From an uncultured delta proteobacterium (GTDB lineage Bacteria > Desulfobacterota > Desulfobacteria > Desulfobacterales > QNYZ01), in the NCBI GenBank assembly GCA_963783425.1, contig CAWANO010000001.1, positions 3,375-67,374 of the forward strand: DNA of 64,000 nucleotides, written 5' to 3'. Shown here in pieces: positions 5,881-27,327 of this stretch. Position numbers and translations under genes: made by a program. Under the pieces are notes generated by a model. That model was not told the DNA's origin and made no database searches. It saw only the letters and a list, made by a program, of their open reading frames with translations. Positions within the stretch are counted from its first letter, which is position 1, and the number at the start of each line of letters is the position of its first letter.

Positions 5881-7362
5881 TCAGTGGAGCTCGATTATAC
5901 GCTTGGCGTCAACGCCGTAGCGTTTCATGCGGTTGTAGACGGTCACGCGGGAAACCCCCAGCATCTCGGCCGCCCGGGACTGATTGCCGCCGGTCTGCTG
6001 CAAGGCCTCGACCAGTTCCTGTTTTTCGACCTCCTTTAAATTGAAGGTGCGTCGTTTGGCCGGGGGCAGGGGGCGTTTGCCCTGGTAAATGGAGTGGGGC
6101 AGGTGGTGCACGCGGATGAGCGATTCGTGGCAGGCCACGAAAGCGTATTCGAAAGCGCTCCTTAGTTCGCGCGCGTTTCCGGGCCAGTCATACTCCGTGA
6201 GCAGCTCCATGGCGCGGTTGTCGATGCCCTCGATATCTTTGCCGCTCTTGAGGCGCACGATGCGAAAGAAGGCCTCGGCCAACAGGGGGATATCCTCGGT
6301 GCGTTGGCGAAGCGGGGGCAAGTGGATGGGGATGACGTTGATGCGGTAAAAAAAGTCCTTGCGGAAGCGGCCCTCGTGCATGAGGCGGGGCAGGTCGCGA
6401 TTGGTGGCCGAAATGATGCGCACCTCCACGGGCAGCGGTGTGCTGCTGCCGACCCGTTCGATCACCTTCTCTTCGAGCACCCGCAGCAGTTTGAGCTGGG
6501 TGGCCATGGGCATGTCGCCGATCTCATCGAGGAAGATGTCGCCGCCGGAGGCTTTTTGGAAGCGCCCGACACGATCGCGGACCGCGCCGGTGAAAGCGCC
6601 CTTTACGTGGCCGAACAGCTCCGATTCCAGCAGCGACTCGGTCAGGCTGGCGCAATTGACGCGCACAAAGGGGCCGTTGTTGCGATCGCCGATTTCGTGA
6701 ATCGCCCGGCTGACAAGCTCCTTGCCCGTGCCGCTTTCGCCGTAGATGATCACCGGAGCGTCCGAAGAGGCGGCATTTTCGATCAGTTCGAATACCTGGC
6801 GCATGGCAGCGCTGATGCCGATGATGCCGTGGAATCCGTCTTTGGCGCGCAGCTCGCGGCGAAAGGCTTCTAACTGAACCTCTTTTTCGGCCAGTTCGGT
6901 AATGTCGGTGACGGTGCCCACCGCGCCGATCACCTCGCCGGTAGTGTCGCGCAGTAGTGATCCGCTCTTGATAACGTGCACCGCCCTGCCGTCTTTGTGG
7001 CGAATGATGCACTTGCAGGTCTTCATCTGGCCGAAACGGAACAGGTCGCACCAGTAGCCGTCTTCGCGGTCCAGGGCCCGGGTGCAGGTATCGCATTCCA
7101 GCAGGTCACAGGCATGGCCGAGCATCTCCTCCAGGCTGTAACCGGTAATGTGCTCCATGGCTCGGTTGACCGAGACGATGGCGCCCTGGTTGTCGACAAT
7201 CATGATGCCGTCGTGGATGGTGTTGACCACCGTTTTCCAGTAGCGATCCAGTTCCTGGAGATGCATTTTCCTGTCCAGTGCGTGCGGGGCGGTAGGTTGC
7301 CACCCGTAGCGTTGAGTCCCATCGGTAATTATGTCCAAGGTGTCAACTGTAAAGGGGCCCAC
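5881..7362 (-). CDS. Sigma-54-dependent transcriptional activator (PAS sensor - AAA+ - Fis-type HTH)
   Basis: Walker A GESGTGKE, GAFTGA motif (HVKGAFTGAV), C-terminal HTH ...AAEMLGVSRVTVYNRMKR. The start codon may be an internal Met. Confidence 0.9.
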   Translation of the reverse strand: MGPFTVDTLDIITDGTQRYGWQPTAPHALDRKMHLQELDRYWKTVVNTIHDGIMIVDNQGAIVSVNRAMEHITGYSLEEMLGHACDLLECDTCTRALDREDGYWCDLFRFGQMKTCKCIIRHKDGRAVHVIKSGSLLRDTTGEVIGAVGTVTDITELAEKEVQLEAFRRELRAKDGFHGIIGISAAMRQVFELIENAASSDAPVIIYGESGTGKELVSRAIHEIGDRNNGPFVRVNCASLTESLLESELFGHVKGAFTGAVRDRVGRFQKASGGDIFLDEIGDMPMATQLKLLRVLEEKVIERVGSSTPLPVEVRIISATNRDLPRLMHEGRFRKDFFYRINVIPIHLPPLRQRTEDIPLLAEAFFRIVRLKSGKDIEGIDNRAMELLTEYDWPGNARELRSAFEYAFVACHESLIRVHHLPHSIYQGKRPLPPAKRRTFNLKEVEKQELVEALQQTGGNQSRAAEMLGVSRVTVYNRMKRYGVDAKRIIELH

Positions 7363-7511
7363 CGCCCACTTTTAACACCTGTAAAAGCGATATACCTTAA
7401 CAATTTAACACTTGTTCGGCAAGAAAATTTGATTCTGATCGCGGCCTTAACCCTCCTAACCATTTATAATCATATTTAAAACCACATATTCGACCATCAA
7501 GCCACGCAGAT

Positions 7512-7527
7512 TGGCCCGGGATTTGCT
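7512..7527 (+). promoter_or_regulatory. Sigma-54 (-24/-12) promoter
   Basis: TGGCCCGGGATTTGCT. GG and GC are spaced exactly as in the consensus TGGCAC-N5-TTGC. It sits 39 nt upstream of the GTG at 7566, and GAAGGAGAG lies in between as the RBS. Confidence 0.7.
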
Positions 7528-7565
7528 TATTGGTCGGTTAAGTTGAAAGAAGGAGAGCTTCCACG

Positions 7566-7826
7566 GTGAAAGACAAAGCGGATTACTCACTGGATGTGCG
7601 CGGAACCATCTCCCCGTTTTCGTTGCTGAAGGTGTCGCTGGTGTTTCAGAAGATGGCGCCCCACGAGATTGTGGAGATTCTGGGCTGCGATCGGGAGATG
7701 CAGCGCGACCTGCTGCGGGTATTGCCAAGGGATAGCTGTGAAGTGGTCCCTAACGACCGACCGGAGAAGGACCCGGAGATGGTGAGAATCTGGCTGAAAA
7801 AACGGGGTGTCGTCACCGCACCCTAG
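7566..7826 (+). CDS. TusA/SirA-like small protein lacking the canonical CPxP cysteine (GTG start)
   Basis: LDVRGTISPFSLLK aligns to the TusA motif LDxxGLxCPxPxL, with Ser in place of Cys. Other cysteines occur in LGCDRE and DSCEVV. Confidence 0.6.
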   Translation: MKDKADYSLDVRGTISPFSLLKVSLVFQKMAPHEIVEILGCDREMQRDLLRVLPRDSCEVVPNDRPEKDPEMVRIWLKKRGVVTAP

Positions 7827-7844
7827 CTTACAAAGGATGGATCA

Positions 7845-9164
7845 ATGGCTGAAGAAACGACTCGAATCAAAGGAAAAAAATCGTCATCTTTTCTCGACAA
7901 GGTCAAGACGCTGCTCCCGGACGGCGGCAATCTCAATCTCTGTCTGACCTGCGGAGCCTGCGCATCGGGCTGCCCGGCAACGGGTCTGGAGGGGATGGAC
8001 CCGCGCAAGTTTTTGCGCATGGCCGCCCTGGGCCTGGACGAAGAGGTGACCAGCACCCCCTGGGTGTGGATGTGTTCCATGTGCCAGCGCTGCATCTACG
8101 TCTGCCCGATGAAAATCGACATCCCGCGCATGGTCTACTACGCCCGGCAGACCTGGCCACGCGAAGAGCGGCCCAAGGGAATTCTCGGATCCTGCGACAT
8201 GGCGCTTAAAAACGACAGCTGCAGTGCCATGGGCGCTTCGCCGGAGGATTTCCAGTTCGTGGTCGAGGACGTGCTCGAGGAGTATCAGGAGAGCCAGCCG
8301 GAGTTTGCCGAAATGCAGGCGCCCATCGACAAGCAAGGGGCCGAGTTCTTCCTAAATCAGAACTCCCGCGAACCGGTCACGGAACCCGACGAACTTTTAC
8401 CGTTGTGGAAGATTCTGCATCTGGTGGGCGCCGACTGGACCTACGGCTCCAAGGGGTGGGCTGGAGAGAACTACTGCATGTTTCTCTCCGACGATGAAGC
8501 CTGGAAGCACATCACCCAAACGGCGGTAAAGCATGCCGAAGAGCTGGGGTGCCGCGTCTTTCTCAACACCGAGTGAGGGCACGTCACTTTCTCGGTCCTG
8601 GAAGGACTGAAAAAATTCAACATCGACCACACGGTCGACGTAAGAAGCATCTACGAGTACTACGCCCGCTGGATCAGGGAGGGGAAGCTAAAGGTCAACG
8701 CCGACTGGAACAAGGATCTGAAGATCAAGTTCACGGTTCAGGATCCCTGCCAGATCGTACGTAAGAGTTTCGGGGATCCGATCGCCGAGGACCTGAGGTT
8801 CGTGGTTAAGTCGGTGGTCGGGGAGGAGAACTTCGTCGATATGGTGCCCAACCGCTCCAACAACTATTGCTGCGGTGGTGGTGGCGGCTTTCTGCAATCC
8901 GGATATAAAGAGGCTCGGCTGGCCTACGGCCGCCTCAAGGATGAGCAGATACAGGCTACGGGGGCCGACTACTGCATCGCGGCCTGTCATAATTGCCACG
9001 CCCAGATCCACGAATTGAGTGAGCACTACGAGGGCGGCTACGGGGTGGTTCACCTGTGGACGCTCATTTGTCTCTCACTGGGCATCCTGGGGCCCAACGA
9101 ACGGGAGTACCTCTTGGATGACCTCAAGGAGATTAACGTGTTTCATCCGGAAACAGCCATGTAG
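7845..9164 (+). CDS. HdrD-like Fe-S oxidoreductase (2x[4Fe-4S] + CCG domains), selenoprotein with in-frame UGA at 8574-8576
   Basis: ORFs 7845..8576 and 8802..9164 share one frame, and no other stop lies between them. Motifs seen: CLTCGACASGCP, CSMCQRCIYVCP, QDPCQ, NNYCCGGGGG, CHNCH. The UGA falls in ...FLNTE-U-GHV.... Confidence 0.8.
8574..8609 (+). other. UGA (Sec) codon plus candidate bacterial SECIS hairpin
   Basis: TGA at 8574-8576. Hairpin CGGUCC-UGGAA-GGACUG at 8593-8609 (6 bp including one G-U, GG in the loop) starts 17 nt after the UGA. Confidence 0.55.
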
Positions 9165-9225
9165 AAGTTCTGGCCGCCAAAATACTGATCAACAGTGGCT
9201 CAACCGTTGCAGGGAAAGGAAACTC

Positions 9226-10098
9226 ATGAGTTTTGAAAAACGATTAAAATCCAAGGAATTTGTCGTGCTGGCGGAGATGAACACCCCCAAGGGGGTTGAT
9301 ATATCCCGCTTTGTAACGGACGCCCGGCGGATCAAGGGCCGCGTTGACGCTGTGGTGGTGCCCGATATGGACAACGGCGTCATGCGTATGAGCGCGCTGG
9401 CCGGCGGGGTGCTGGCCCAGCAGCAGGGCCTGGAGGCGATCATTCATGTCTATGGCCGGGATCGCAACCGCATGGCCCTTCAGGGTGATCTGCTGGCCGC
9501 CCACGTGCTGGGCCTTCGCAACCTGGTCGTGGTGGGCGGGGAAGAGATGGACAATTCGGACCACCGCGAGGCCGTGGCGGTGGACGATCTGGACGAGATG
9601 GATTTGCTGGAGGCGATCTCCGCGCTACAGGCGGGAAAGGATCTGGCCGGGTTTGATCTGGACGGCAGCCCGGAGTTCGTGACCGGCTGTGCCCTGTCAC
9701 CCTGTGAAGATGAGGCCGCACTGGCAACGGAACTTGCCGCCGCTCGGAAGAAGGTGTCGGCCGGGGCGCGTTTCGTGATTACGCCGCCAGTGTTCGACCT
9801 GGACCATTTTCTGGCCTTTGACGAACAGGCCCGGGCGCTGCAGGTGCCCATTATCCCGACCGTATTTTTAATCAAGTCGGTGGCCGTCGCCCGTTATATC
9901 GCCACCAATGAACCCTGGTCGCATCTCTCCGAGGCCTTGATCAAGCGCATCCGCAAGTCCGCCAACCGCGAAATGGAAGGCATCAAGATCGCCGGCGAGA
10001 CCGTAGCCCAACTGCGCCGCCATGCCGGAGGGGTACTGATTCAGACCATGGGCTGGGAGCATCGCCTGCCGACCATTCTCGATGAGGCCGGGATTTAA
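9226..10098 (+). CDS. Methylenetetrahydrofolate reductase-like protein, paralog 1 (no adjacent MetV)
   Basis: Start at MSFEKR with RBS AGGGAAAGGA. Colinear with the MetF at 14332 (VDAVVVPDMDNG.../...YGRDRNRMALQGDLL). Confidence 0.75.
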   Translation: MSFEKRLKSKEFVVLAEMNTPKGVDISRFVTDARRIKGRVDAVVVPDMDNGVMRMSALAGGVLAQQQGLEAIIHVYGRDRNRMALQGDLLAAHVLGLRNLVVVGGEEMDNSDHREAVAVDDLDEMDLLEAISALQAGKDLAGFDLDGSPEFVTGCALSPCEDEAALATELAAARKKVSAGARFVITPPVFDLDHFLAFDEQARALQVPIIPTVFLIKSVAVARYIATNEPWSHLSEALIKRIRKSANREMEGIKIAGETVAQLRRHAGGVLIQTMGWEHRLPTILDEAGI

Positions 10099-10129
10099 CG
10101 TCCACCTTTAGCGTTGAAAAAAGGATATC

Positions 10130-13100
10130 ATGGAAAACCCACGAAGATTCCAGTCTAAAAATAAGGTGCTGGTGGTGGGCGGCGGTGTGGCCGGGATCCG
10201 CACCTCGCTCGACCTTGCGGAAGCCGGTCGCGACGTGGTGCTGGCGGACGCTGCCAACGCCATCGGCGGCCTCATGACTCAACTGGATCGCACATTTCCT
10301 ACCAACAATTGCGATCTTTGCACCATTTCGCCCAATATGTCCGAGGGCAACCGCAACTTTCACATCGACCTGATGACCCTCACCCGCGTAGAGGCGCTGG
10401 AAGGGGAGGCCGGTAATTTTACGGTGACGCTTGCGACATCGCCGCGTTACATCGACACCGAGCGATGCACGGCCTGCGGCGACTGCCACCGCAAGTTTCC
10501 CGGGTGCGTTAACTTTAATCCCGGTCTCGACCACCGCGCGCCGACCTGCATGCGCTACCCGCAGGCCACGCCCCAGGCCTATTCCATCGACATGGCGCGC
10601 TGTGACGACAAGGAAGCCCTGGTGGCGTGCTGCCCGGCCGATGCGATCGTGCTGGACGACCGAGAGGTGCAGCAGCAGATGCATTTTGGTGCCGTTGTGC
10701 TGGCGCCGGGGGCGGCCATCTTCGATCCCGCCAAACTGGACAATTTTAGCTACGGCAGTGAGCCGGACGTGGTTACCAGTCTCGAGTATGAGCGTATCTT
10801 GTCGGCTTCGGGACCCACCGGCGGTCAACTGCTCCGTCGCTCTAACGGCCAGGCGCCGGCCAAGATTGCCTGGATCCAGTGCGTTGGCTCGCGGGGGTTG
10901 CAAAAGGGGGCGGCCAGCTACTGTTCCAGCGCCTGCTGCATGTTCGCCCTCAAGGAGGCCATCGTCACCAAGGAGCGCTTCGGCGACGAGATCGACACCA
11001 CCATCTTCTTCATGGACATGCGTACCTTCGGTAAGGATTACGAGCAATACTACCAGCGCAGCCGTGATGAATTCGGCGTTCGTTTCGTTCGGAGCCGGCC
11101 CCACAGCGTGATCCGCAAGCCAGGCGAGGCGCAAGTAACCGTTACCTACGCGCCCTTTGACGAAAGCCTTTTTACCGAAGAGAAATTCGACCTGGTGGTG
11201 CTCTCCACGGGGTTTGCCGTCAGTGACGCGGTGCGTGAAACGGCCGAAAAGCTAGGGGTGGCTCTAAACGAGCACGGGTTTGCCCAAACCGGCGCCTTTG
11301 ACCCGGTAGCCACCTCACGACCCGGCGTCTATGTCTGCGGCATGTTCGAAAGCCCCAAAGATATTCCCGAAACCATGGTTCAGGCCAGTGCCGCGGCTTG
11401 TTGCGCGGCCGAGTTGGTGACGGCTGAAAGCGCCGAGCCGGTGGCCGCCGGTTTTTTTGAAGAGGAGATGTCGGCTGAGATCAGCGCCGAGTTTCCGCCC
11501 GAGCGTGACGTGGTCGGCGAACCGCCTAAGATCGGTGTTTTTATCTGTGACTGCGGCGAAAATATCGGGGGTGTGGTGGACGTGGCCGCGCTGGCCCAAT
11601 ACGCGGCCAGGTTGCCCGCCGTTGAGGTGGCCGAGGTGCTCGGCCACGGCTGCAGCCGCGAGGCCATGGGCCGTATCCGCGATCGAATCCAGGAGCGCTT
11701 GCTCAATCGGGTGGTGATCGGCGGCTGTTCGCCGCGTACCCACGAGCTGCGGTTTCAGGATACCATCCGCCAGGCGGGCCTCAACAAATATCTGGTGGAG
11801 ATCGCCAACCTGAGGGATCAGGACACCTGGGTACACCTGGATCGCCCCGAGCAGGCCGCCGGCAAGGCACGTCAGTTGATCAAAGCGGCGGTGGAAGCGG
11901 TTAAGGCCGCCCGGCCCCTGACCGATCACTATCTGCCCATCAACCATGATGTGCTGGTGGTGGGTGGCGGCGTAGCCGGCATGACCAGTGCCCTCAGCCT
12001 CGCCGATCAGGGCTATAAGGTCTTTCTGGCCGAGCGCCGGTCAATGTTGGGCGGCGTGGCGGTTCTGGTGCGCAAGACCCTGGAAGGGGACGATGTACAG
12101 GCCTTCGTGGACGGGCTTGTTGAAAGAACCGGCGCACATCCCAACATCGAAGTGATCACCAACGCCTTTATCGTTGACCACAGCGGCATGCCGGGCATGT
12201 TCAAAACCGGTATGCAGGTTGGCCCGCGGATGTTTTACCGCCAGATCACCCATGGGGTGACAGTGATGGCTACGGGCGCCCTGCCCAATCGCCCCGAGGG
12301 TTACCTGTTGGGGGCACACGCGGCGGTGATGACCCAACTGGAAGCGGACGCGCTTTTCGATGAGGCGCCGGAACGTGTCAAGGCGTGGGAGAACGTGGTC
12401 ATGATCCAGTGCGTGGGGTCGCGCACGCCCGAAAACCCCAACTGCTCGCGCGTTTGCTGTCAGGCGGCGGTGAAAAACGCGCTGCGTATATTGGCGTTCA
12501 ACCCAGAAGCGCGCATGATTGTTTTATACCGCGACATGCGCACCTACGGATTTCAGGAGGACTACTACCGCATGGCGCGCGAAAAGGGCGTGATCTTTAT
12601 TCACTACGAACCGGAGACACCGCCGCAGGTGAGCGACCGGGAGGAGCGGGTAGAGGTAACATTCACCGATCCGATTCTGGGTCGAACGTTATCCGTGGCG
12701 GCCGATGCACTGCTGCTGAGCACCGGATTTATCAGCGACGACGAGTCCAGCGAGGACCTGGCGGCCATCTTTAAACTGACGCGCACAAGTGACGGCTTTT
12801 TTCTGGAAGACCATATCAAGTTACGGCCGGTAGACCTTTCGGTGCCCGGGTTCTTCGTGGCCGGCACGGCCCATGCCCCTAAACTGATTCGCGAAACCGT
12901 TGCCCAGGCCAAGGCGGCTGCCGGGCGGGCGTTGACGCTGCTGGCCCGCGAAAGCATCAATCTGGGGGCGGCCGTGGCGAGAGTGGATGCCGAAAAATGC
13001 GCGGCCTGCCTGGTGTGTGTACGGGCATGCCCCTTTGACGTGCCATTCATCAACGCCGACGGCTATTCCGAAATCGATCCGGCCAAATGCCACGGGTGTG

Positions 13101-13207
13101 GTGTTTGCGCCGCGGAGTGTCCGGCCAAAGCGATACAGATCATGTGCTTCGAGGATGACCAGATCCTTGCGAAGCTCGACGGACTGCTGGAAAGGATGGT
13201 GGCCTAA
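10130..13207 (+). CDS. hdrA: HdrA-like flavoprotein, 1025 aa, with two HdrA-type FAD modules and C-terminal 2x[4Fe-4S]
   Basis: VLVVGGGVAGIRTS near the N-terminus and VLVVGGGVAGMTSA near residue 610. TFPTNNCDLC motif. Terminal CAACLVCVRACP...CHGCGVCAAECP. Confidence 0.85.
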   Translation: MENPRRFQSKNKVLVVGGGVAGIRTSLDLAEAGRDVVLADAANAIGGLMTQLDRTFPTNNCDLCTISPNMSEGNRNFHIDLMTLTRVEALEGEAGNFTVTLATSPRYIDTERCTACGDCHRKFPGCVNFNPGLDHRAPTCMRYPQATPQAYSIDMARCDDKEALVACCPADAIVLDDREVQQQMHFGAVVLAPGAAIFDPAKLDNFSYGSEPDVVTSLEYERILSASGPTGGQLLRRSNGQAPAKIAWIQCVGSRGLQKGAASYCSSACCMFALKEAIVTKERFGDEIDTTIFFMDMRTFGKDYEQYYQRSRDEFGVRFVRSRPHSVIRKPGEAQVTVTYAPFDESLFTEEKFDLVVLSTGFAVSDAVRETAEKLGVALNEHGFAQTGAFDPVATSRPGVYVCGMFESPKDIPETMVQASAAACCAAELVTAESAEPVAAGFFEEEMSAEISAEFPPERDVVGEPPKIGVFICDCGENIGGVVDVAALAQYAARLPAVEVAEVLGHGCSREAMGRIRDRIQERLLNRVVIGGCSPRTHELRFQDTIRQAGLNKYLVEIANLRDQDTWVHLDRPEQAAGKARQLIKAAVEAVKAARPLTDHYLPINHDVLVVGGGVAGMTSALSLADQGYKVFLAERRSMLGGVAVLVRKTLEGDDVQAFVDGLVERTGAHPNIEVITNAFIVDHSGMPGMFKTGMQVGPRMFYRQITHGVTVMATGALPNRPEGYLLGAHAAVMTQLEADALFDEAPERVKAWENVVMIQCVGSRTPENPNCSRVCCQAAVKNALRILAFNPEARMIVLYRDMRTYGFQEDYYRMAREKGVIFIHYEPETPPQVSDREERVEVTFTDPILGRTLSVAADALLLSTGFISDDESSEDLAAIFKLTRTSDGFFLEDHIKLRPVDLSVPGFFVAGTAHAPKLIRETVAQAKAAAGRALTLLARESINLGAAVARVDAEKCAACLVCVRACPFDVPFINADGYSEIDPAKCHGCGVCAAECPAKAIQIMCFEDDQILAKLDGLLERMVA

Positions 13208-13632
13208 TGGAGAAGTTCGAACCGGTGATCGTGGCTTTTTGCTGTCACTACTGCGCCTACACGGCAGCCGACATGGCCGGCAGCCAACGGATCTGCTACC
13301 CGCCCAACGTCAAGATCGTGCGGGTGCCCTGTTCGGGCAAAGTCGATACGATTCACATCCTCAAGGCCTTTGAAAAAGGCGCTGACGGGGTATACGTGGC
13401 CGGCTGCCTGGACGGAGACTGCCATTTTAACAACGGCAATGTGCGGGCTGCACGGCGCGTGGATATGGTCAAACAGATGCTGGACGAAATCGGCATCGGC
13501 GCCGAACGGCTCGAGATGGTCAAGATGTCGGCCGGCATGGGCGACCGATTCGCCGAAGTTGCCGAGCGTATTACCGATAAAATTCGCAACCTGGGTCCCA
13601 ATCCGGTGGTTTCAGCCCGGAGCGCCGCTTAG
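13207..13632 (+). CDS. mvhD: MvhD/FlpD-type [2Fe-2S] electron-transfer protein
   Basis: VAFCCHYCAY...VPCSGKVD...GADGVYVAGCLDGDCHF, the hallmark of the methyl-viologen-reducing hydrogenase delta subunit. Confidence 0.9.
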   Translation: MEKFEPVIVAFCCHYCAYTAADMAGSQRICYPPNVKIVRVPCSGKVDTIHILKAFEKGADGVYVAGCLDGDCHFNNGNVRAARRVDMVKQMLDEIGIGAERLEMVKMSAGMGDRFAEVAERITDKIRNLGPNPVVSARSAA

Positions 13633-13666
13633 GCGCACGACCCATAAACAAGGAGAATCAGAGCCA

Positions 13667-14335
13667 ATGATCACAGCGGAACGCAAACCTTTGAATGAAA
13701 TCATCGAATATGTGCGCCCCTTCGATCGGATCCTGCTGGTCGGCTGCAACGAGTGCGTCACGGTGTGCGCGGCCGGCGGGCGCAAGGAGGTGGGCATTCT
13801 CTCATCGGCCTTGCAAATGGCCTTGTTGAAGCAGGGTAAAAACATCCAGATCAAAGAGCATACCCTGGAGCGTCAGTGCGACCCCGAGTATGTGGAGGAG
13901 CTGGTCACCATGATTGATGGGGCCGATGCGGTGCTCTCCATGGCCTGTGGCTGCGGGGTTCAGGAACTGGCGCGGCGCTACCGGGACAAACCGGTCTTTC
14001 CGGCCGTCAACACCAAATTCATGGGCGCCTCCGAGCGTCCGGGCGTTTGGGCCGAGCGTTGCCAGGGGTGCGGCGATTGTTTGCTGGGCATCACCGGCGG
14101 TATCTGTCCCATCGCCCGCTGTTCGAAACGGTTGTTGAATGGTCCCTGCGGTGGATCCACCCAGGGCAAGTGCGAGGTGGGTCCGGAGATCGACTGCGTA
14201 TGGCAGCTGATCTGGGATCGTCTTAAGGCATTGGGGCGTGAAGACCGCTATGAAGATATCATGCCGGCCAAGGATTGGAGAACCGGACGGGGCGGCGGAC
14301 CCCGCAAGATCATCAGAGAGGATTTGGCAGAATGA
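13667..14335 (+). CDS. metV: MetV (methylene-THF reductase C-terminal-like zinc/Fe-S protein)
   Basis: RBS AAGGAGA, start MITAERKP. Cys-rich motifs GCNECVTVCAAGG, CQGCGDC, CPIARCSKRLLNGPCGG. Its stop overlaps the metF start (ATGA). Confidence 0.8.
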   Translation: MITAERKPLNEIIEYVRPFDRILLVGCNECVTVCAAGGRKEVGILSSALQMALLKQGKNIQIKEHTLERQCDPEYVEELVTMIDGADAVLSMACGCGVQELARRYRDKPVFPAVNTKFMGASERPGVWAERCQGCGDCLLGITGGICPIARCSKRLLNGPCGGSTQGKCEVGPEIDCVWQLIWDRLKALGREDRYEDIMPAKDWRTGRGGGPRKIIREDLAE

Positions 14336-15258
14336 AAACCGACAGCGTTCTGGAAAAAGTGCTCAGCAGCGGCAACCTGGTAGTGACCTCGGAATGCGGC
14401 CCTCCGCGCGGCGCGGCCGTGGACAAGGTCCACAAGAAGGCGGAGATGCTCAAGGGTTATGTTGATGCCGTCAACGTGACCGACAACCAGACCGCCATGG
14501 TGCGTATGTCGAGCTTTGCCGCCAGCGTTTTTTTGCGCCAGATGGATCTGCATCCGGTGCTGCAGATGGTGACCCGGGATCGCAACCGCCTGGCCATGCA
14601 GGCCGACATCATCGGGGCTTATGCCCACGGCATCAACACCATGCTGTGTCTCTCTGGCGATCACCCCCATTTCGGCGATCACCCCATGGCCGCCAATGTA
14701 CATGATATCGATTCGATCCAGTTCATCCAGATGGTCAAGCAGATGAGAGACGAGGGTATCTTCCAGGGCGGTGCCAAGATTGACACGCCCCCCAAGATGT
14801 TCATCGGCGCGGCGGCCAATCCCTTTGCCGACCCTTTTGAGTTGCGCGTGGCGCGGTTGGCCAAGAAAGTGGCCGCTGGAGTCGACTTCATTCAGACCCA
14901 GTGCATCTACAACGTGGACAAGTTCGAGCAGTGGATGGAAGGGGTGTGTGGGCGGGGCTTGAATGAAAAGTGCGCCATTCTGGCCGGTATCACGCCCATG
15001 AAGTCGGTGGGCATGGCGCGCTACATGAAAAACAAGGTGCCGGGTATGGATGTGCCCCAGGCGCTGGTGGACCGCATGGGCGGCGTACCCAAGGAGCAGC
15101 AGGCCGAAGAGGGGCTTAAGATCTGCGTGGAGACCATCCAGCGCCTCAAGGAGGTGCCGGGGGTGGCCGGATTTCACATCATGGCCATCGAGTGGGAGCA
15201 GAAGGTGCCTGAGATCGTTGAAAAATCGGGACTCTACCCACGGCCCAAACTGAATTGA
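14332..15258 (+). CDS. metF: Methylenetetrahydrofolate reductase (acetogen/SRB type), paralog 2
   Basis: Start MKTDSVLEK overlaps the metV stop. TIM-barrel MetF motifs VDAVNVTDN, TRDRNR, FIQTQ. Confidence 0.85.
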   Translation: MKTDSVLEKVLSSGNLVVTSECGPPRGAAVDKVHKKAEMLKGYVDAVNVTDNQTAMVRMSSFAASVFLRQMDLHPVLQMVTRDRNRLAMQADIIGAYAHGINTMLCLSGDHPHFGDHPMAANVHDIDSIQFIQMVKQMRDEGIFQGGAKIDTPPKMFIGAAANPFADPFELRVARLAKKVAAGVDFIQTQCIYNVDKFEQWMEGVCGRGLNEKCAILAGITPMKSVGMARYMKNKVPGMDVPQALVDRMGGVPKEQQAEEGLKICVETIQRLKEVPGVAGFHIMAIEWEQKVPEIVEKSGLYPRPKLN

Positions 15259-15301
15259 CCCGCTAATGATCCGTGGGCGCTGGTTAAAGTCAGAAGACAA
15301 G

Positions 15302-15318
15302 GGCCTGCCGAGCAGGCC
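15302..15318 (+). terminator. GC hairpin after metF (weak or partial terminator)
   Basis: GGCCTGC-cga-GCAGGCC, a 7-bp stem with no clear T-run after it. Confidence 0.3.
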
Positions 15319-15348
15319 GATACAAATACCCTTAAGGAGGAAAACAAA

Positions 15349-15735
15349 ATGACTGAAAAACAACTAATACTGGTGGTGGACGACGATCCCGATCTGGTTG
15401 AGTCGGTGTCCATGAAGTTGGAGAGCGAAAATTACCGGGTGGCCAAGGCCTATGACGGCGTGGAAGCCATGGATCGCATCAAGCAAGAGCGGCCTGAACT
15501 CATCATTCTTGATGTGATGATGCCGCGCAAAAACGGCTACACCCTTTGTGATGAGCTGAAAACCTCGGAAGAGTACCGGGACATCAGCGTGGTGCTGCTC
15601 ACCGCCGTGGCCGAAGCGGTCACCTCCACCAGTTACACCCACATGGATGGCAAAAACACCCTGGCCGACGACTACATCCCCAAACCGATCGAGCTTGATC
15701 GGTTGATGGAGATCGTCAAGGATCTGACCGAATAA
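15349..15735 (+). CDS. Single-domain response regulator (CheY-like receiver)
   Basis: VVDDDPD...ILDVMMP...KP receiver signature; RBS AAGGAGG. Confidence 0.9.
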   Translation: MTEKQLILVVDDDPDLVESVSMKLESENYRVAKAYDGVEAMDRIKQERPELIILDVMMPRKNGYTLCDELKTSEEYRDISVVLLTAVAEAVTSTSYTHMDGKNTLADDYIPKPIELDRLMEIVKDLTE

Positions 15736-15863
15736 CCGATCTGTCACCCGAATCTCGGTGGGCGCTTCCGAGATTCGGGGCAGGACGCTTGACGACAGCC
15801 GGTTTTGGCGGTTGCCAAGGTCAACGTTCGATCAACGACCGAGGCGGTTTGTTGCGGCGATAA

Positions 15864-16397
15864 ATGCATGCACGACCGTCCGATGGAAAAGATATGGGAG
15901 CGGATGTCACTGAAAAGCTGAGGATCAACGGGATCAAACTCAGCGAGGAGCTGGTCCAGGTCAATCTGGCCCCGGGCGGCGAGATTTCCGCGGGGAGGCT
16001 GTTTCGCCAGCTGGCCGTTCGCCGCATTAACCTGTCGCTGGTGGCCTTGGCGGCTCATCCAGAGGGTGTTGCCAGCGCCTGTTGCCTGGCGGCCGATGAC
16101 CTGCCGCTGGCACAGCCCATTTTCGATACGATCCTTAAGGGGGCGCGGATCATCCCGGCGGTGGGCGCCTTGACGGTTTTTCCCCACCGCACGCGATTTG
16201 ACTTGCTGGGGTGTGTGCTGGGCGCATTTCACCGCTGCCGGCTGCCTGTTCATGCCATCGCCTCGTCGCTAGCGGCCCTGACGTTGACGACTGATTATGG
16301 GGGCTTGGAAGCGGCCCTGGCGGCCGTCCAAGAGGTTGCCACGCTTCCGGAAAACCATGCCCCCTTTCACCCGGAATTCAAGGTGTGGCAGATCTGA
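15864..16397 (+). CDS. ACT-domain-like protein (aspartokinase C-terminal-like); start uncertain (ATG at 15894 possible)
   Basis: Repeated beta-alpha-beta-like segments resembling ACT modules. The stop overlaps the next start (TGATG). Assignment by pattern only. Confidence 0.4.
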   Translation: MHARPSDGKDMGADVTEKLRINGIKLSEELVQVNLAPGGEISAGRLFRQLAVRRINLSLVALAAHPEGVASACCLAADDLPLAQPIFDTILKGARIIPAVGALTVFPHRTRFDLLGCVLGAFHRCRLPVHAIASSLAALTLTTDYGGLEAALAAVQEVATLPENHAPFHPEFKVWQI

Positions 16398-16918
16398 TGG
16401 AAACCATCGCCGTATACTGGGAGCCCAGGATCAAGACTTACGGGTTCAATCAGCGGGTCGGTTTGACGATGATCTCACTCTCGCTGCCGACCGGATCGAG
16501 CGAGCCCGATGGCGACCGGATCGGTCTGGCCTTAGCGGCCGCTGGTGATCTTGTGCTGACCTTTGCCGTTCCCACCGCTCACGGTGAGCTGCGGCTCAAC
16601 TTATTACTGGAAGAGGCCACCGCCGAACAACTGACAGCAGCTTTGACATCGATCTGCTATGGTGGCTCCTACGATCTGCGGGTTGAGACCGGGGTGGAAC
16701 TGATCTATTTTAACGGCCCTCATTTTGGAGATCGCTACGGCATTGCCGATGCGGCCTTGCAAGCCTTGAGGCGGGCTGAAGTGCGACCGCTGGGCGTCGT
16801 GTGCGCCAGCGCGTCGGTTTACATCGTATTGCCCGGGCAGACGGCTGAAACGGTCTGTAAATATTTGACGGAAACCTTCGACGGGCCCGGCGGGAAGCCA
16901 TATGGCCGAAGGCAGTAA
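16397..16918 (+). CDS. ACT-domain-like protein, second paralog
   Basis: Start METIAVYWE overlaps the upstream stop. ...YFNGPHFGDRYGIA... resembles aspartokinase-type ACT regions. Confidence 0.4.
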   Translation: METIAVYWEPRIKTYGFNQRVGLTMISLSLPTGSSEPDGDRIGLALAAAGDLVLTFAVPTAHGELRLNLLLEEATAEQLTAALTSICYGGSYDLRVETGVELIYFNGPHFGDRYGIADAALQALRRAEVRPLGVVCASASVYIVLPGQTAETVCKYLTETFDGPGGKPYGRRQ

Positions 16919-16921
16919 TTC

Positions 16922-18448
16922 ATGATGGATAAACTTCGTGATCAGATCGATTGGCGAATCCGGGTTTTCGATTCGCTCTCATTTCCGACGCTGATCCTTC
17001 GGCCGGACCGCACGATTGTATCGGTCAACAAGAAATTTCTCGAAAAAATCGGCGCCCGGGAGGCCGATGTGGTGGGCCAGACCTGCCGGAATTTCTTCAT
17101 CCGCTACGATTACGACCCGGAGCTGCCCTGCAGCAAGGAACAATGCCCGCTGGACAAAACCCTGAAAGACGGTTGCGGGCATTCGGTGCTCAGGCAGGTC
17201 AAAGGCAAGGATGGCGAAATACGCTGGGAGGACCGGCATTTGTCGCCGATCCTGGATGAGAATGGCAGTGTTATCTATGTGATTGAAAGCGTTCGTGACG
17301 TCACCCAGACCAAGACGCTGGAAAGCATGTACTATAATATTAGCGAGTACCTGGAAAAGATCATCCAAAGCTCGCCCAGCGCCATCGTAGCTGCCGACCG
17401 GCAGGGCAAAATCCTGCTGATGAACGAAGCGGCCGAAACCCTGTTCGGGTGCACCATCGCCGATACGGAATCGATCACGGCCGAGGATCTCTATCCGCCG
17501 GGGGTGGCCCGGGAGATCATGGCCAAGATGCGTGACGACGAGTTCGGTGGTCGTGGTAAATTGCAGATGACCGAGCTCAATATCGTGGACACCAAGGGTG
17601 AGGAGATCCCGGTGGAACTCACTGCGGCCGTCATATACAAGACCGACCACGAAGTGGCCAGCATGGGCATTTTCAACGATCTGCGCGAGCGGCGCGCGGT
17701 GGAAAACAGGTTGCAAGAGGCCGAGCGCAAGGTGTTGCAGTCGGAAAAAATGGCCTCCTTAGGTCGCCTGGCCGCCGGGGTGGCGCACGAGATCAACAAT
17801 CCGCTTACCGGGATTCTGATGTACGGCAACATGACCCTTGAGAGATTGACCAGCCAAGATCCGGTGCGTAAAAATCTGCAATACGTGCTCGAAGATTGCG
17901 AGCGCTGCCGCGACATCGTCAAGAATCTGCTGGCCTACAGCCGTCAGACCAACCCCTCTCAGGAGGTGTTCGCGTTGAGCGATATGGTCGAAGAGAGCCT
18001 TGGCCTAATCCGCGACCAGAAGCTCTTTATGAATATTCGCATCGACAAACAGATCAGCAACGGAGATCTTTGCATTAGTGCCGACCGTAACCAGATGCAG
18101 CAGGTGGTGATCAACCTGGTGATGAACGCGCTGGACGCCATGGATGGAGAGGGGGTGCTGACATTGCGAACCTTTCCGGATCCCAGGAAAAACAGAGCGG
18201 TATTGGAGGTGTCCGACACCGGCAAGGGTATACCGGAATCGGACCGCACGCGGGTCTTCGATCCCTTTTTTACCACCAAGGCCCTGGGCAGCGGCACCGG
18301 GCTGGGGTTGAGCACGGTGTACGGCATCGTCAAGGAGAACAATGGCAACATCCAATTGACTCAGGCCGATCCGGGTCGGACCACGTTTCGGGTGGAAATG
18401 CCGCTTTTTGACGCCCAAAACGAGAAGGCGCCGGTTACCATTGGATAA
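16922..18448 (+). CDS. PAS-domain sensor histidine kinase (cytoplasmic)
   Basis: Two PAS-like regions, H-box AAGVAHEINNPL, G-box GTGLGLSTVYGIV. Confidence 0.9.
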   Translation: MMDKLRDQIDWRIRVFDSLSFPTLILRPDRTIVSVNKKFLEKIGAREADVVGQTCRNFFIRYDYDPELPCSKEQCPLDKTLKDGCGHSVLRQVKGKDGEIRWEDRHLSPILDENGSVIYVIESVRDVTQTKTLESMYYNISEYLEKIIQSSPSAIVAADRQGKILLMNEAAETLFGCTIADTESITAEDLYPPGVAREIMAKMRDDEFGGRGKLQMTELNIVDTKGEEIPVELTAAVIYKTDHEVASMGIFNDLRERRAVENRLQEAERKVLQSEKMASLGRLAAGVAHEINNPLTGILMYGNMTLERLTSQDPVRKNLQYVLEDCERCRDIVKNLLAYSRQTNPSQEVFALSDMVEESLGLIRDQKLFMNIRIDKQISNGDLCISADRNQMQQVVINLVMNALDAMDGEGVLTLRTFPDPRKNRAVLEVSDTGKGIPESDRTRVFDPFFTTKALGSGTGLGLSTVYGIVKENNGNIQLTQADPGRTTFRVEMPLFDAQNEKAPVTIG

Positions 18449-18517
18449 TGATCCGCCACAGTACACCCTCAACCGAGCCCCCGCCGCCCCAAGCTCTTTG
18501 AAAAGAAGCGAGTTGTC

Positions 18518-19996
18518 ATGACAGCAGATGTGCAGTACCAGAGCGCGACAGCGCCGAAAATATTGGTGGTGGACGACGAGGCCCGCATCAGAGACGCCTG
18601 CCGGGAAGTTTTGGGCGAGTGTGGTTACCAGGTCACCGTGGCCGAGGATGGCGCCCGCGGACTGGCATTTATCGAGCAGTCCCACTTCGACATTGTTTTA
18701 CTGGACTTGATGATGCCGGTACTTTCCGGTGCGGACGTACTGGACCGGGTGAAGGACTTGCACCCCGAAACGGTGATCATCGTGATTACCGGCTACGCCA
18801 CGGTGGAGCACTCCATCGAGGCCATGAAAAACGGCGCCTTCGACTTCATCTCCAAACCGTTTACACCCGAGCACTTGCGGGTCACCGTCGCCAAGGCAAT
18901 CGAGTATATCCGGGCCCTGCACGACATCGCCGATACCCACTCGCGGATTCGCACCATGGTGCACCGGCTCTCCGACGGGGTGATGTGCACCAACGACCTG
19001 AACCAGATCGTGCTGGCCAATCCGGCCTTTTTGCAGATGGCCGGTTACACCGCTGGCCGCTCGGTGGTGGGCGAAGCCTACACGCAGGTGGTGCCTTTTG
19101 CTAGACTGAGAGAGATGATTTCGGAGACTTTGGCCGGCACTGAAACCGATAGGCCGGAGCGTTCCGATGAGATCGAGCTGGTAGGGGAGGGTGGCGATCA
19201 GGGTCGCATCCTCAGTGCCCGCTGCACACCGTTTCGCAACCGCACCGGAGCGACCATGGGGGTCATCACGGTACTTCACGACATCACCGCTCTGAAAACG
19301 CTCGATCGCATGAAAAGCGAATTCGTCTCCATGGTGAGTCACGAAATCCGGGGACCACTCAACTCCGTGTTGATGCAACTGCGGGTGATATTAGACGGCC
19401 TGGCGGGGGAGGTGACCGAAAAACAGCGCCAGATCCTCGACCGCGCCACCGACAAAATCAGCAACCTCTCCAGCCTGACCAGTGAATTGCTCGACCTGGC
19501 GCGCATCGAGTCGGGCCTGATCTCCCAGGAGATGGAACGGGTGGACCTGGGGCCGCTGCTGCTTGAGCAGGTGGCTTTTCACGGGCCCCGGGCTGAATCG
19601 GCCGCGATCGAGCTGAAGCTGGATGCACCCCCGAACCTGCCGCCGGTGATGGCCCACCGCCGCAACATGGAAGAGGTGGTTTCGAATCTGATCGTCAACG
19701 CCATCAAATACACGCCCGCCGGCGGCAAGATTACGGTTTCAGCCGCGGCGGGCGAAGACAACCTGGTGATCAAAGTTGCCGATACGGGTTTCGGCATTTC
19801 GCCGGATGACCAGAAACAGGTCTTTCAACGTTTTTACCGGGTCAAGAACGAACAGACCCGTTACGTTAACGGGACCGGACTGGGGCTCTCGATCGTAAAA
19901 AGTATCGTGGCGTCACACCATGGCAATGTGACCCTTGAAAGCAGCCCCGGCACCGGCAGCACCTTCTCCGTTTTTCTGCCGCTTTCAGCTGCCTGA
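18518..19996 (+). CDS. Hybrid receiver-PAS-histidine kinase
   Basis: N-terminal receiver (VVDDE...LLDLMMP...KPF), PAS, H-box MVSHEIRGPLN, G-box GTGLGLSIVKSIV. Confidence 0.9.
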   Translation: MTADVQYQSATAPKILVVDDEARIRDACREVLGECGYQVTVAEDGARGLAFIEQSHFDIVLLDLMMPVLSGADVLDRVKDLHPETVIIVITGYATVEHSIEAMKNGAFDFISKPFTPEHLRVTVAKAIEYIRALHDIADTHSRIRTMVHRLSDGVMCTNDLNQIVLANPAFLQMAGYTAGRSVVGEAYTQVVPFARLREMISETLAGTETDRPERSDEIELVGEGGDQGRILSARCTPFRNRTGATMGVITVLHDITALKTLDRMKSEFVSMVSHEIRGPLNSVLMQLRVILDGLAGEVTEKQRQILDRATDKISNLSSLTSELLDLARIESGLISQEMERVDLGPLLLEQVAFHGPRAESAAIELKLDAPPNLPPVMAHRRNMEEVVSNLIVNAIKYTPAGGKITVSAAAGEDNLVIKVADTGFGISPDDQKQVFQRFYRVKNEQTRYVNGTGLGLSIVKSIVASHHGNVTLESSPGTGSTFSVFLPLSAA

Positions 19997-21965: not shown

Positions 21966-22008
21966 GCCAAGTTGCCTCGTTGGAAGGGATGACTTGGCTT
22001 TTTTATTT
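21966..22008 (+). terminator. Hairpin plus T-run (rho-independent terminator-like)
   Basis: GCCAAGT...ACTTGGC followed by TTTTTTATTT. A perfect TATAAT lies at 21913-21918. Confidence 0.35.
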
Positions 22009-22045
22009 CACGCGATCTACCGGCAAAATCAAGGAGATTTAATCT

Positions 22046-22534
22046 GTGAAAAGACAAAGGAGGGCGGGTAAAGTCATAGCTGTTGTTTTGATAGTTGTTT
22101 TCTTGGCTGGATGTTCAACATCACCTAAAAAGATAAGCGCATCATACGTATCACCGACTGAGTATTCACATTTAGAATGCGATCAGATTCGTAGCGAATT
22201 ATCACAAGTCAAACGCGAACTGTCGCAAATAACTGGACAACAGGAAAGCGAAGCAACCAAAGATGCTGTGGCATTAAGTGTAGGTTTGGTTATCTTTTGG
22301 TCAGCTCTCTTTTTTATGATTGGTGACGACAAAAAGGAAGAAATCTCTTTGCTTAAAGGTAAATATGAGGCTTTAGAGACAAGCGCAATAGAGAAGAAAT
22401 GTAGCTATGCCCCTGAAATAGTGGAGGGTAGAGAAGAACGGAAAAAACTTGAGGCTGAGCTCAAGAAGAAAGAAGAAGAGGCAGCTCAGAAGATACATGG
22501 CGGAACCGATCAATACGGCAATCCATGGGATTGA
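22046..22534 (+). CDS. Lipoprotein with coiled-coil C-terminus (GTG start)
   Basis: Lipobox VFLAGC after a basic N-terminus; one internal hydrophobic segment; K/E-rich tail. Confidence 0.6.
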   Translation: MKRQRRAGKVIAVVLIVVFLAGCSTSPKKISASYVSPTEYSHLECDQIRSELSQVKRELSQITGQQESEATKDAVALSVGLVIFWSALFFMIGDDKKEEISLLKGKYEALETSAIEKKCSYAPEIVEGREERKKLEAELKKKEEEAAQKIHGGTDQYGNPWD

Positions 22535-24034: not shown

Positions 24035-24046
24035 ATGGGAGGAACT

Positions 24047-24553
24047 ATGAACAATGTCAGGGGGATTAAATCAATTGTAGCCGGTCTTTTTGTTACCTTG
24101 CTGGCAACAGTAGGTATTATTGCGATTATTGGTTCTGGCGGCGGTGGTGGCGGCGATTCCAACCCTCAAGGGGGGATAAGGTTTAAAAACGCGCTAAGAT
24201 GCGCTAATGGGGCGAGTTTTAGCGCAAGTATGACCATTCAGGGTACAACGCTCGGTTCACAGTCTGGAGTATGGAGCAGGTGCATAATTCGTGCACCAGG
24301 AACATATCAGGCTAGGATTCAATTTACAGCTTGTGGCGTTAATGCGGCGGGAACTATTCCCGTTGACGTGACCGAAGGGTGTACCTCAAGCGGCGTTCTA
24401 ACCTATCGAAATAACGTGCTTGTAATAGTCCCGCAATTAAATTGCCCGGGGGTTTGTTTGCAATCAAACACGTCAGCGATGAGCGCCGATGAAGTTCCAC
24501 TTGAAACATTACCTTACGGAATAGACAATAACACCATTATGAATGTTGAATAA
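24047..24553 (+). CDS. Secreted or membrane-anchored Cys-rich hypothetical protein
   Basis: RBS GGGAGG, start MNNVRG. N-terminal TM/signal segment, Gly6 run, multiple Cys residues; no family recognised. Confidence 0.5.
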   Translation: MNNVRGIKSIVAGLFVTLLATVGIIAIIGSGGGGGGDSNPQGGIRFKNALRCANGASFSASMTIQGTTLGSQSGVWSRCIIRAPGTYQARIQFTACGVNAAGTIPVDVTEGCTSSGVLTYRNNVLVIVPQLNCPGVCLQSNTSAMSADEVPLETLPYGIDNNTIMNVE

Positions 24554-24703
24554 AAGAAACTGTTCGTAATCAACTCAAACAATACTCCAACCTTTGTGTG
24601 CTTGAGATTGGCCGTATTTTAGGGGTGTTGTGGAAACGCGGTTGTATGAACTTAAACGAGATCGCCCGATATGCGCGAGATTAGAGCGTTGGGGAGAAGA
24701 GAG

Positions 24704-25096: not shown

Positions 25097-25337
25097 CAAT
25101 TTAACTAATGTATTCATCTGAAAAACAACAACATTGTTTCTTTAAATAGGTAAAAAAGGACTTTACTTTTATATAAATATTATTTATAGTACTTTGTAGA
25201 AATAAGTATTTAAAAATTTAATCAAGTCGGTTAACCAAGCCGCATTCAAAGTCACCACGGAGGCAGGATGATTACACCAATGGCCCGTGGTGGGCATTTG
25301 AGGCGGCTTTTTTTATTTGGAGAACAAGGAGTTGAAA

Positions 25338-25709: not shown

Positions 25710-25710
25710 A

Positions 25711-27293: not shown

Positions 27294-27327
27294 TTTCTAC
27301 TTTTAATGGCTGGAAGAAGGATAGAAA

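Follow-up and report, generated by a model that had tools for sequence, protein, structure and literature searches.

A stretch of 64,000 nucleotides (nt) from the genome of an uncultured delta proteobacterium (contig CAWANO010000001.1 of assembly GCA_963783425.1; "the window" below is this whole stretch) carries seven genes on one strand, p1 to p7, that combine subunits of a methylene-tetrahydrofolate (methylene-THF) reductase, MetFV, with subunits of the heterodisulfide reductase (Hdr) type. They encode, in order, a TusA-fold protein, a CCG-domain iron-sulfur protein whose gene contains an in-frame UGA codon, a divergent paralogue of MetF, a fused double HdrA, MvhD, MetV and a second MetF (Table 1). 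We show that this gene order recurs across two orders of Desulfobacterota, and we present evidence that the UGA encodes selenocysteine (Sec) at a position proposed to be catalytic in related reductases. The operon, which belongs to bacteria of the sulfate-reducer type, most likely couples folate one-carbon redox chemistry to a selenium-containing disulfide or trisulfide reductase.

Layout of the seven-gene cluster

All seven closely packed genes of the original prediction, which had been made from the letters alone, were recovered by open reading frame (ORF) listing, translation and profile searches. Successive spacings from p1 to p7 are 18, 61, 31, −1, 34 and −4 nt; the start of p5 overlaps the stop of p4 by 1 nt, and that of p7 overlaps the stop of p6 by 4 nt (ATGA). 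The ORF starts listed for p3, p6 and p7 lie too far upstream and were corrected. Two MetF paralogues had been noted, with MetV before the second only, and indeed p6 precedes p7 while no MetV precedes p3. An HdrA of 1025 amino acids (aa) and an MvhD are likewise present, the latter matching the FlpD profile over positions 1-123 of 123 and the NCBIfam VhuD model at 169.6 bits. As predicted, no HdrE-type cytochrome or hydrogenase gene lies within ~8 kb on either side of the operon, and the same interval holds no gene for HdrB or HdrC; the neighbors there are ZnuABC, regulators and an aminotransferase.

Table 1. Coordinates of the operon and its associated features (positions in the window).
Feature	Position	Strand	Evidence or remark
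PAS-domain sigma-54 enhancer-binding activator, divergent	5881-7362	-	Pfam PAS, Sigma54_activat (231 bits), HTH_8
Sigma-54 type -24/-12 element, TGGCCC-N5-TTGCT	7512-7527	+	Read from sequence; 54 nt upstream of p1 start
p1, TusA-fold protein without conserved Cys, 86 aa	7566-7826	+	GTG start; ribosome-binding site GAAGGAG 8 nt upstream; Pfam TusA
p2, CCG iron-sulfur selenoprotein, 439 aa	7845-9164	+	Translation through TGA; Pfam Fer4_8, CCG
Putative UGA selenocysteine codon, p2 residue 244, motif NTE-U-GH	8574-8576	+	Aligned with Cys of homologues
Bacterial SECIS-like hairpin, 8-bp stem, GGA loop	8592-8610	+	Starts 15 nt after UGA
p3, divergent MetF paralogue without MetV partner, 290 aa	9226-10098	+	Pfam MTHFR, 86.6 bits
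p4, fused double HdrA, 1025 aa	10130-13207	+	NCBIfam HdrA2/HdrA, three matched stretches
p5, MvhD, [2Fe-2S] electron-transfer subunit	13207-13632	+	Pfam FlpD, 174.6 bits
p6, MetV, iron-sulfur small subunit of MetFV	13667-14335	+	PF12225, 131.7 bits
p7, acetogen-type MetF	14332-15258	+	Pfam MTHFR, 133.7 bits
Receiver-only response regulator	15349-15735	+	Pfam
Two overlapping 177-aa proteins without Pfam family	15864-16397, 16385-16918	+	No usable Pfam match at E <= 10
PAS histidine kinase	16922-18448	+	Pfam
Receiver-PAS histidine kinase	18518-19996	+	Pfam

A selenocysteine codon in the CCG protein

The UGA of p2 falls where 14 full-length homologues (66-77% identity; from Desulfonema, Desulfosarcina, Desulfatitalea and others) have Cys within an invariant NTECGH motif. 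Residues 245-439, downstream of the UGA, are conserved in frame up to the C-terminus. When one genome per species was scanned, 585 relatives were obtained, and among the best 80 loci, which were analyzed further, the codon at this position is TGA in 78 and TGC in two. Just downstream lies a hairpin that resembles a bacterial Sec insertion sequence (SECIS) element. The SECIS region folds with z = -2.88, and over 74 distinct sequences 95.9% of stem cells hold standard pairs, with compensatory double changes in half of the eight stem pairs (e.g., U-A to G-C at the closing pair). None of 500 shuffles matched the observed values, slid controls pair at no more than 44%, and the stem is degraded in both loci that carry the Cys codon. 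The Sec call of the original prediction was thus right: the codon preference, the Cys of homologues and the covarying hairpin argue strongly that the UGA is a genuine selenocysteine codon.

A true stop at this TGA, between separate HdrC-like and HdrB-like genes, is ruled out because the 225 nt that follow it, conserved in frame, align with residues of the full-length Cys homologues. Gene callers break the protein into pieces of 243 aa and 120 aa, which is why the protein database holds mostly Cys forms. Owing to this splitting at the UGA, the family is under-counted and mis-annotated in both genomes and metagenomes.

Related clusters contain Sec in other subunits. An in-frame TGA (FPTNDCAM-U-VISPK) interrupts the HdrA-type gene of relatives (locus L087, 5337-5720, and L019 and L050), where p4 of the window has Cys. 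The MvhD of L019 and L050 apparently contains an in-frame TGA too (the called ORF is N-terminally truncated), at a position that is Cys in p5. The HdrA of L086-L088 has Sec at the classical HdrA position, which is Cys in p4. Sec usage therefore appears to differ by subunit between species.

A single-CCG protein of the DsrK type

The p2 protein consists of an N-terminal 2x[4Fe-4S] ferredoxin domain (Fer4_8, residues 30-91) and a C-terminal CCG domain. Its sole complete CCG motif is formed by C302, C342-C343-G, C381 and C384, all invariant, and of a first CCG-like domain just C211, C236 and residue 244 remain. A profile search against the PDB matched residues 7-103 to HdrC and residues 280-415 to HdrB, at its second CCG domain. 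Among NCBIfam models, p2 scores best with HmcF (174 bits; cut-off 750), TmcB (167 bits; 735) and DsrK (124 bits; 400). By fold, the p2 model is closest to Mycobacterium smegmatis EtfD (9ojn; template-modelling score TMq 0.63, 463 columns, E = 1.4e-7), followed by HdrB. No gene for a membrane partner of the DsrM, TmcC or HmcE kind lies near p2, and p2 itself has no transmembrane domain.

The original prediction placed a soluble HdrD-type protein where HdrB and HdrC would be expected, and proposed that a Sec-containing HdrD replaces HdrBC in a variant complex. A CCG protein does stand in that place, and a Sec-containing HdrC/HdrB fusion does lie beside MetFV, HdrA and MvhD. However, it is of the DsrK/TmcB/HmcF type with one CCG motif, and not a two-CCG HdrD. 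Identity with the HdrD of methanogen HdrDE is ruled out both by the single CCG motif and by the lack of a cytochrome b gene nearby.

In DsrK, HmcF and TmcB, too, there is just one CCG motif, and their substrate is the trisulfide of DsrC, which is reduced by DsrMKJOP (PMC10861901). The cysteine of their T/GECGH motif is strictly conserved and has been proposed to be catalytic (PMC10861901). The alignment equates Sec244 of p2 with this cysteine. Sec/Cys pairs typically mark redox-active catalytic residues (PMC1794560), and the presence of Sec in the T/GECGH motif thus gives independent support to the proposed catalytic role. The preference for Sec at this position, in 78 of the 80 loci, constitutes natural evidence for the redox-active nucleophile that was proposed in 2024 for DsrK-type enzymes.

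Relatives of p2 occur in several genetic contexts. In Syntrophobacter and Desulfotalea, a selenoprotein annotated as "Fe-S oxidoreductase (GlpC)" adjoins hdrA-frhD-frhG-frhA (PMC1794560), and an HdrD4 has been described in Desulfobacterium autotrophicum (PMC2702500). A Cys-form paralogue in Desulfonema magnum (CP061800.1, locus L090, 2989-10308) follows genes for a DAO-type dehydrogenase, EtfB, EtfA and an unknown protein of 162 aa, an arrangement which hints that this CCG module can also be linked to Etf. Another Cys-form paralogue, in Desulfosarcina ovata, lies beside HGD-D/BcrAD genes. The p2 family thus looks like a portable output module that is mounted on varied electron-input modules.

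Conservation of the gene order

The exact gene order of the window is present in 15 genomes of Desulfobacterales and Desulfobulbales, as found by tblastn of nine window proteins against the best 80 loci; the lack of conservation in relatives that would have refuted the original prediction is thus not observed. In this arrangement, type A, a divergent sigma-54 activator, p1 to p7 and a receiver protein follow one another (L006, L010, L013, L014, L022, L038, L041, L051, L055, L056, L060, L062, L064, L065 and L072; L014 and L055 are partial). The hosts belong to Desulfobacteraceae and Desulfocapsaceae/Desulfobulbaceae and include Desulfopila, Desulfofustis sp. PB-SRB1 and Desulfoprunum benzoelyticum DSM 28570 (L056), which provides a cultured host of the exact operon. 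Across type A loci, identity to the window ranges from 32-59% for p1 up to 73-85% for p6. Such recurrence is far beyond chance, because the order is found in 15 independent genomes at 32-85% protein identity.

The Sec protein is also joined to HdrA, MvhD, MetV and MetF in three further orders, at no fewer than 17 loci beyond type A. Nine loci have the order HdrA-MvhD-Sec protein-MetV-MetF (type B), six, including Desulfosarcina variabilis, have MetV-MetF-HdrA'-HdrA''-MvhD-Sec protein (type C), and two have a fourth order of the same genes (type D). The other loci among the best 80 are short contigs or place the Sec protein in different contexts. Orthologues of p3 with at least 68% identity are contained in at least 120 clusters at 90% identity; by this measure, the operon type appears to be widespread in Desulfobacterota metagenomes.

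A second type of cluster, seen in L086-L088, consists of a MetF-like gene of the p3 clade, an HdrA fused to a GltD-like Fer4_20 module, MvhD, MetV, MetF and a receiver protein, with no CCG protein. Since both this cluster and the window have a p3-clade MetF before HdrA-MvhD-MetV-MetF, the series "MetF-like, HdrA-type, MvhD, MetV, MetF" forms a conserved core. The comparison also suggests that p1 and p2 take the place of the NAD(P)H module found in the other cluster type.

The HdrA, MetF and TusA-fold subunits

The double HdrA appears to be an asymmetric pseudo-dimer. Its halves are 31% identical. When p4 is aligned to methanogen HdrA (8rvu_a), residues 44-362 correspond to HdrA 185-502 (the TrxR-like flavin adenine dinucleotide (FAD) domain with its inserted ferredoxin domain), residues 459-642 to HdrA 5-188 (the N-terminal domain and the start of a second FAD-binding region) and residues 843-1021 to HdrA 478-654 (the last part of the flavin domain together with the C-terminal 2x[4Fe-4S] domain). 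We read p4 as asymmetric because there is one copy of each accessory domain over two flavin modules. In keeping with this, the operon encodes MvhD, MetV and the CCG protein once each. Desulfosarcina variabilis (type C) has a gene of its own for each half, of 404 aa and 547 aa.

The two MetF paralogues differ at the folate site. They are 31% identical, and both are full-length members of the methylenetetrahydrofolate reductase (MTHFR) family, p3 covering profile positions 2-287 of 287. As reference we used the Escherichia coli MetF sequence, with residue roles that we take to be general acid for Glu28, folate/NADH contact for Gln183 and, within the GD motif, Asp120. The p7 protein keeps the equivalents of Glu28, Asp120 ("SGDH") and Gln183 ("QTQ"). 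All p3 orthologues keep the Glu28 equivalent; in all 15 of them Gln183 is replaced by Pro ("ITPPVFD") and Thr59 likewise by Pro. Their GD motif, at the Asp120 position, is variable, with an acidic residue mostly one place later. An exhaustive search placed p3 in a clade of MTHFR-like representatives without "TQ", a motif that canonical MetF, including p7, retains. A member of this clade, 44% identical to p3, lies directly upstream of the HdrA-type gene in L086-L088. The original prediction saw in the extra MetF-like protein a possible second substrate or acceptor site; a second folate site there is doubtful in view of the Pro that replaces Gln183 in every orthologue. PDB sequence searches with p3 and p7 returned distant classical MTHFRs only and no solved MetFV-Hdr complex.

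With moderate confidence, we assign p1 to the TusA alpha/beta fold. Its Pfam TusA score is marginal (29.3 bits; cut-off 28.6), but the match is full-length. The AlphaFold2 model (predicted local distance difference test, pLDDT, 72.6) has a beta-alpha-beta-alpha-beta-beta order, and its best fold matches in the PDB are TusA/YhhP and YeeD (1dcj, 3lvj, 8k1r; TMq 0.65-0.74). The CPxP cysteine is replaced by Ser ("ISPF") in p1 and by S, A, W or K in orthologues. No alignment column keeps Cys throughout the 15 orthologues; Cys41 is conserved solely within the subclade of the window. For these reasons p1 is ruled out as a TusA-style persulfide carrier, and the view of it as a sulfur or acceptor site finds no support. 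The family is small, with 53 matches, several of which agree with p3 matches in the length of their longest contig, as would fit shared contigs.

Promoter and regulatory block

The divergent activator occupies the same position at 14 type A loci, with 47-69% identity. A TGGY-N8-TGC element stands at the place equivalent to the sigma-54 type element of the window in 10 of the 15 type A loci; loose matches to this pattern number 39 over 128 kb (both window strands). No sigma-70-like promoter site was found in 7300-16000, and terminators inside the operon do not exceed chance (9 terminator-like sites; 8.6 expected). Co-transcription of the seven genes agrees with both findings, a single putative sigma-54 promoter and no internal terminators above chance.

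The five-gene block at 15349-19996 follows the operon in every type A locus with enough flank, and it also lies beside the type B clusters L019 and L045. The two 177-aa proteins, retained in many genomes between the receiver protein and the PAS kinase beside MetF-Hdr clusters, may be ligand-binding regulators. In L086 and L087, the gene at the corresponding place, after the response regulator, has a faint ACT_7 match.

Proposed mechanism and alternatives

We propose that the seven genes constitute a single operon under sigma-54 control, which encodes a soluble complex with several flavins and iron-sulfur clusters, a Desulfobacterota variant of the MetFV-HdrABC-MvhD methylene-tetrahydrofolate reductase of acetogens. 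The flavin of the MetF p7 would interconvert methyl-THF and methylene-THF, and MetV (p6) and MvhD (p5) would hand single electrons to the FAD of p4. From p4, electrons would move on to p2, with its two [4Fe-4S] clusters and its one noncubane CCG cluster. As a DsrK-type reductase, p2 would use its noncubane cluster and a catalytic Sec244 on a protein-bound trisulfide or disulfide, with oxidized DsrC as the leading candidate substrate by homology. In a sulfate reducer that oxidizes its substrates completely, the electrons released when methyl-THF is oxidized (about -200 mV) would flow to the sulfur acceptor, and the HdrA flavin may split the electron pair and reduce ferredoxin as well. The folate-site-altered paralogue p3, a fixed partner of HdrA-MvhD-MetV-MetF cores, would probably have a flavin or structural role, and p1 may serve as a Cys-less adaptor subunit without carrying sulfur.

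The sequences document the gene content, Sec with its SECIS element, the placement of the motifs, the synteny and the promoter; from them we infer the physical complex, the DsrC substrate, the direction of flow, bifurcation and what p1 and p3 do. A soluble MetFV-HdrAA'-MvhD-DsrK(Sec) complex that links methyl-/methylene-THF to a protein disulfide or trisulfide, probably that of DsrC and possibly with bifurcation, has in our estimate an even chance of being correct. The more specific version is doubtful: a bifurcating methyl-THF:DsrC-trisulfide/ferredoxin oxidoreductase with a catalytic Sec, in which the pseudo-MetF and the Cys-less TusA-fold protein are previously unrecognized subunits. Such an enzyme, if real, would plug the methyl branch of the acetyl-CoA pathway straight into the last step of sulfate respiration, and would name the type of the long-sought "second acceptor" of MetFV-Hdr complexes, at least in sulfate reducers.

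Several observations weigh against this proposal. By score, p2 is not an orthologue of DsrK, TmcB or HmcF, and EtfD, its top structural match, passes electrons to menaquinone. No dsrC homologue was found in the window, in the 80 related loci or in L086-L088 (a very divergent DsrC could escape the query used), so the DsrC assignment derives solely from the homology of p2 to DsrK-type proteins. [quoted passage not shown] Bifurcation from -200 mV would require an acceptor of high potential. Finally, the HdrCBA-MvhD-MetVF proteins of Sporomusa ovata have been proposed to link to the membrane and not to a disulfide (PMC9430772).

This last model, together with the EtfD match, would favor a reading in which p2 performs no thiol/disulfide chemistry but docks to, and exchanges electrons with, a cytochrome b or quinone site in the membrane whose gene lies elsewhere, in the manner of HdrD-HdrE, DsrK-DsrM or EtfD; the whole would then be a methyl-THF:menaquinone oxidoreductase, or run in reverse. 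Cys-form paralogues of p2 adjoin EtfAB, and in L088 the gene right beside the related cluster encodes a cytochrome b. The potentials of the methyl-THF side (about -200 mV) and of the quinone side (about -74 mV) are established, and electron flow between them is thermodynamically comfortable. However, neither the window cluster nor the 15 type A loci contain a gene for a cytochrome b or another membrane protein, and p2 lacks a transmembrane domain. Sec in the T/GECGH motif of nearly all the loci points to nucleophilic redox chemistry and not to a plain relay, and the electron chains of HdrDE and DsrMK have their CCG cluster at the catalytic end and not at the quinone end (PMC10861901). We therefore regard a quinone-linked enzyme as unlikely.

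The acceptor could also be a different sulfur compound, if p2 reduced a heterodisulfide, persulfide, polysulfide or thiosulfonate that p1 presents or gates. The position of p1, always directly upstream of p2 in type A, agrees with this, as do the absence of dsrC nearby and the small p1 family with its apparent links to p3 contigs. TusA-fold proteins serve sulfur trafficking next to sHdr systems. Yet p1 has neither the CPxP cysteine nor a Cys conserved in its orthologues, the neighborhood contains no sulfur-transferase, DsrE or rhodanese genes, and types B, C and D do without p1 while keeping the Sec protein with HdrA-MvhD-MetFV. Another sulfur substrate is accordingly a rather poor candidate.

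Still less probable is a regulated anabolic MTHFR under metabolite-sensing control, which would supply methyl-THF for methionine and S-adenosylmethionine, or draw it from demethylations, with Hdr as the point of electron entry. The dedicated regulatory block kept beside type A and some type B clusters could be read in this way, as could the faint ACT_7 match, the absence of CODH/ACS from the window and the occurrence of type A in Desulfobulbales genera not classically seen as oxidizers through the acetyl-CoA pathway. However, a 1025-aa double HdrA, MvhD and a selenoprotein seem too heavy an apparatus for a biosynthetic reductase, and the ACT match is faint, while the 177-aa proteins of the window have no significant match at all. 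According to two reports (PMC8515935, PMC9430772), acetogen-type MetFV is catabolic wherever it has been studied.

That p1-p3 and p4-p7 are merely adjacent units and not one complex is highly improbable: the widest internal gap (61 nt, between p2 and p3) and the p2-family genes found alone or in unrelated contexts would allow it, but order and spacing are kept in 15 genomes despite the divergence of the proteins, one conserved sigma-54 promoter and no internal terminator above chance serve the operon, p2 is re-associated with HdrA-MvhD-MetFV in three other orders, and p3-clade genes abut HdrA in the second cluster type.

Relation to known systems

The proposed folate:disulfide complex has its nearest counterpart in the MetFV-HdrABC-MvhD methylene-THF reductase of Moorella thermoacetica and Sporomusa ovata, as described in earlier reports (PMC6085437, PMC6295475, PMC9430772). 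Both co-encode acetogen-type MetF, MetV, MvhD and HdrA, and in both an Hdr-type CCG module forms an unexplained third arm. In contrast to the acetogen complex, the window has one fused, single-CCG, Sec-containing DsrK-type protein in place of HdrB and HdrC, its HdrA is a fused pseudo-dimer of two different modules, and it adds a MetF paralogue that lacks Gln183 as well as a Cys-less TusA-fold protein. The operon of the window is also sigma-54-controlled, by its promoter element, and its host belongs to Desulfobacterota and not to Firmicutes.

With DsrK, TmcB and HmcF (PMC10861901), p2 shares the two-cluster ferredoxin domain, the single complete CCG motif and the T/GECGH residue. These proteins have Cys where p2 has Sec, and a membrane partner where the p2 cluster has none; p2 scores far under their equivalog cut-offs, and its partners are HdrA, MvhD and MetFV. 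EtfD of M. smegmatis resembles p2 in its HdrC/HdrB-like iron-sulfur domain, but it is a 742-residue membrane protein that feeds menaquinone, whereas p2 is soluble, shorter and 16% identical to it.

The GlpC selenoproteins (PMC1794560) and HdrD4 (PMC2702500) are, like p2, soluble Sec proteins of HdrD/GlpC-like type beside hdrA and mvhD (frhD) in Deltaproteobacteria. Their partner is an MvhGA/FrhGA hydrogenase or is unspecified, whereas the window has MetV-MetF, a second MetF-like protein and a TusA-fold protein; these papers do not tie the Sec position to the T/GECGH motif of DsrK. Clusters of the HdrL type (L086-L088; HdrL was named in D. autotrophicum, PMC2702500) share with the window the core order MetF-like, HdrA-type, MvhD, MetV, MetF and receiver protein. 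Unlike the window, they have no CCG or TusA-fold protein, and their HdrA carries a Fer4_20/GltD-like module and Sec.

HdrA or HdrABC genes next to metF have been reported in syntrophic sulfate-reducing bacteria (PMC10553843). The Sec family and the proximity of Hdr genes to metF in sulfate reducers are thus already known (PMC1794560, PMC2702500, PMC10553843). A description of the seven-gene arrangement was not found in the literature searched, which did not cover two key reviews.

Ever since the description of the Moorella complex, it has been asked which electron partner the Hdr-linked methylene-THF reductases use; a like question is where complete-oxidizing sulfate reducers send the electrons of methyl-THF (-200 mV). 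A DsrK-type module beside MetFV-HdrA-MvhD yields a concrete hypothesis for both, with the DsrC trisulfide or another protein disulfide as the acceptor.

Other features of the window

No RNA genes were found in the whole window, by Rfam at gathering thresholds or by a tRNA scan. An IS66-family transposase gene (864-2405) lies in a stretch of 47% guanine-plus-cytosine (GC) content at the window start. The region 22000-32100 is a low-GC island (41-49% GC; about 58% around it) and is probably an integrated mobile element. It contains genes for an IS110-family transposase (22743-23777), a resolvase (29961-30644) and a zinc-ribbon recombinase (30663-32045), together with several ORFs without family matches (25711-26427, 27328-28602 and 29161-29892). 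For two further ORFs, at 44911-45885 (324 aa) and 52868-54532 (554 aa), Pfam gave no family at E <= 1e-5.

An ORF at 33668-34363, some 1.6 kb away from the island, matches the C-terminal part of catalase alone (profile positions 248-380 and the catalase-related domain), with no N-terminal half upstream, and resembles the remnant of a truncated catalase. The minus strand at 34403-40030 encodes a full set of pyruvate/2-oxoacid dehydrogenase components: a dihydrolipoamide dehydrogenase (E3), a lipoyl-E2 acyltransferase and an E1 of the homodimeric type with 892 aa. Its presence is somewhat unexpected, given that the closest relatives are strictly anaerobic Desulfobacterota.

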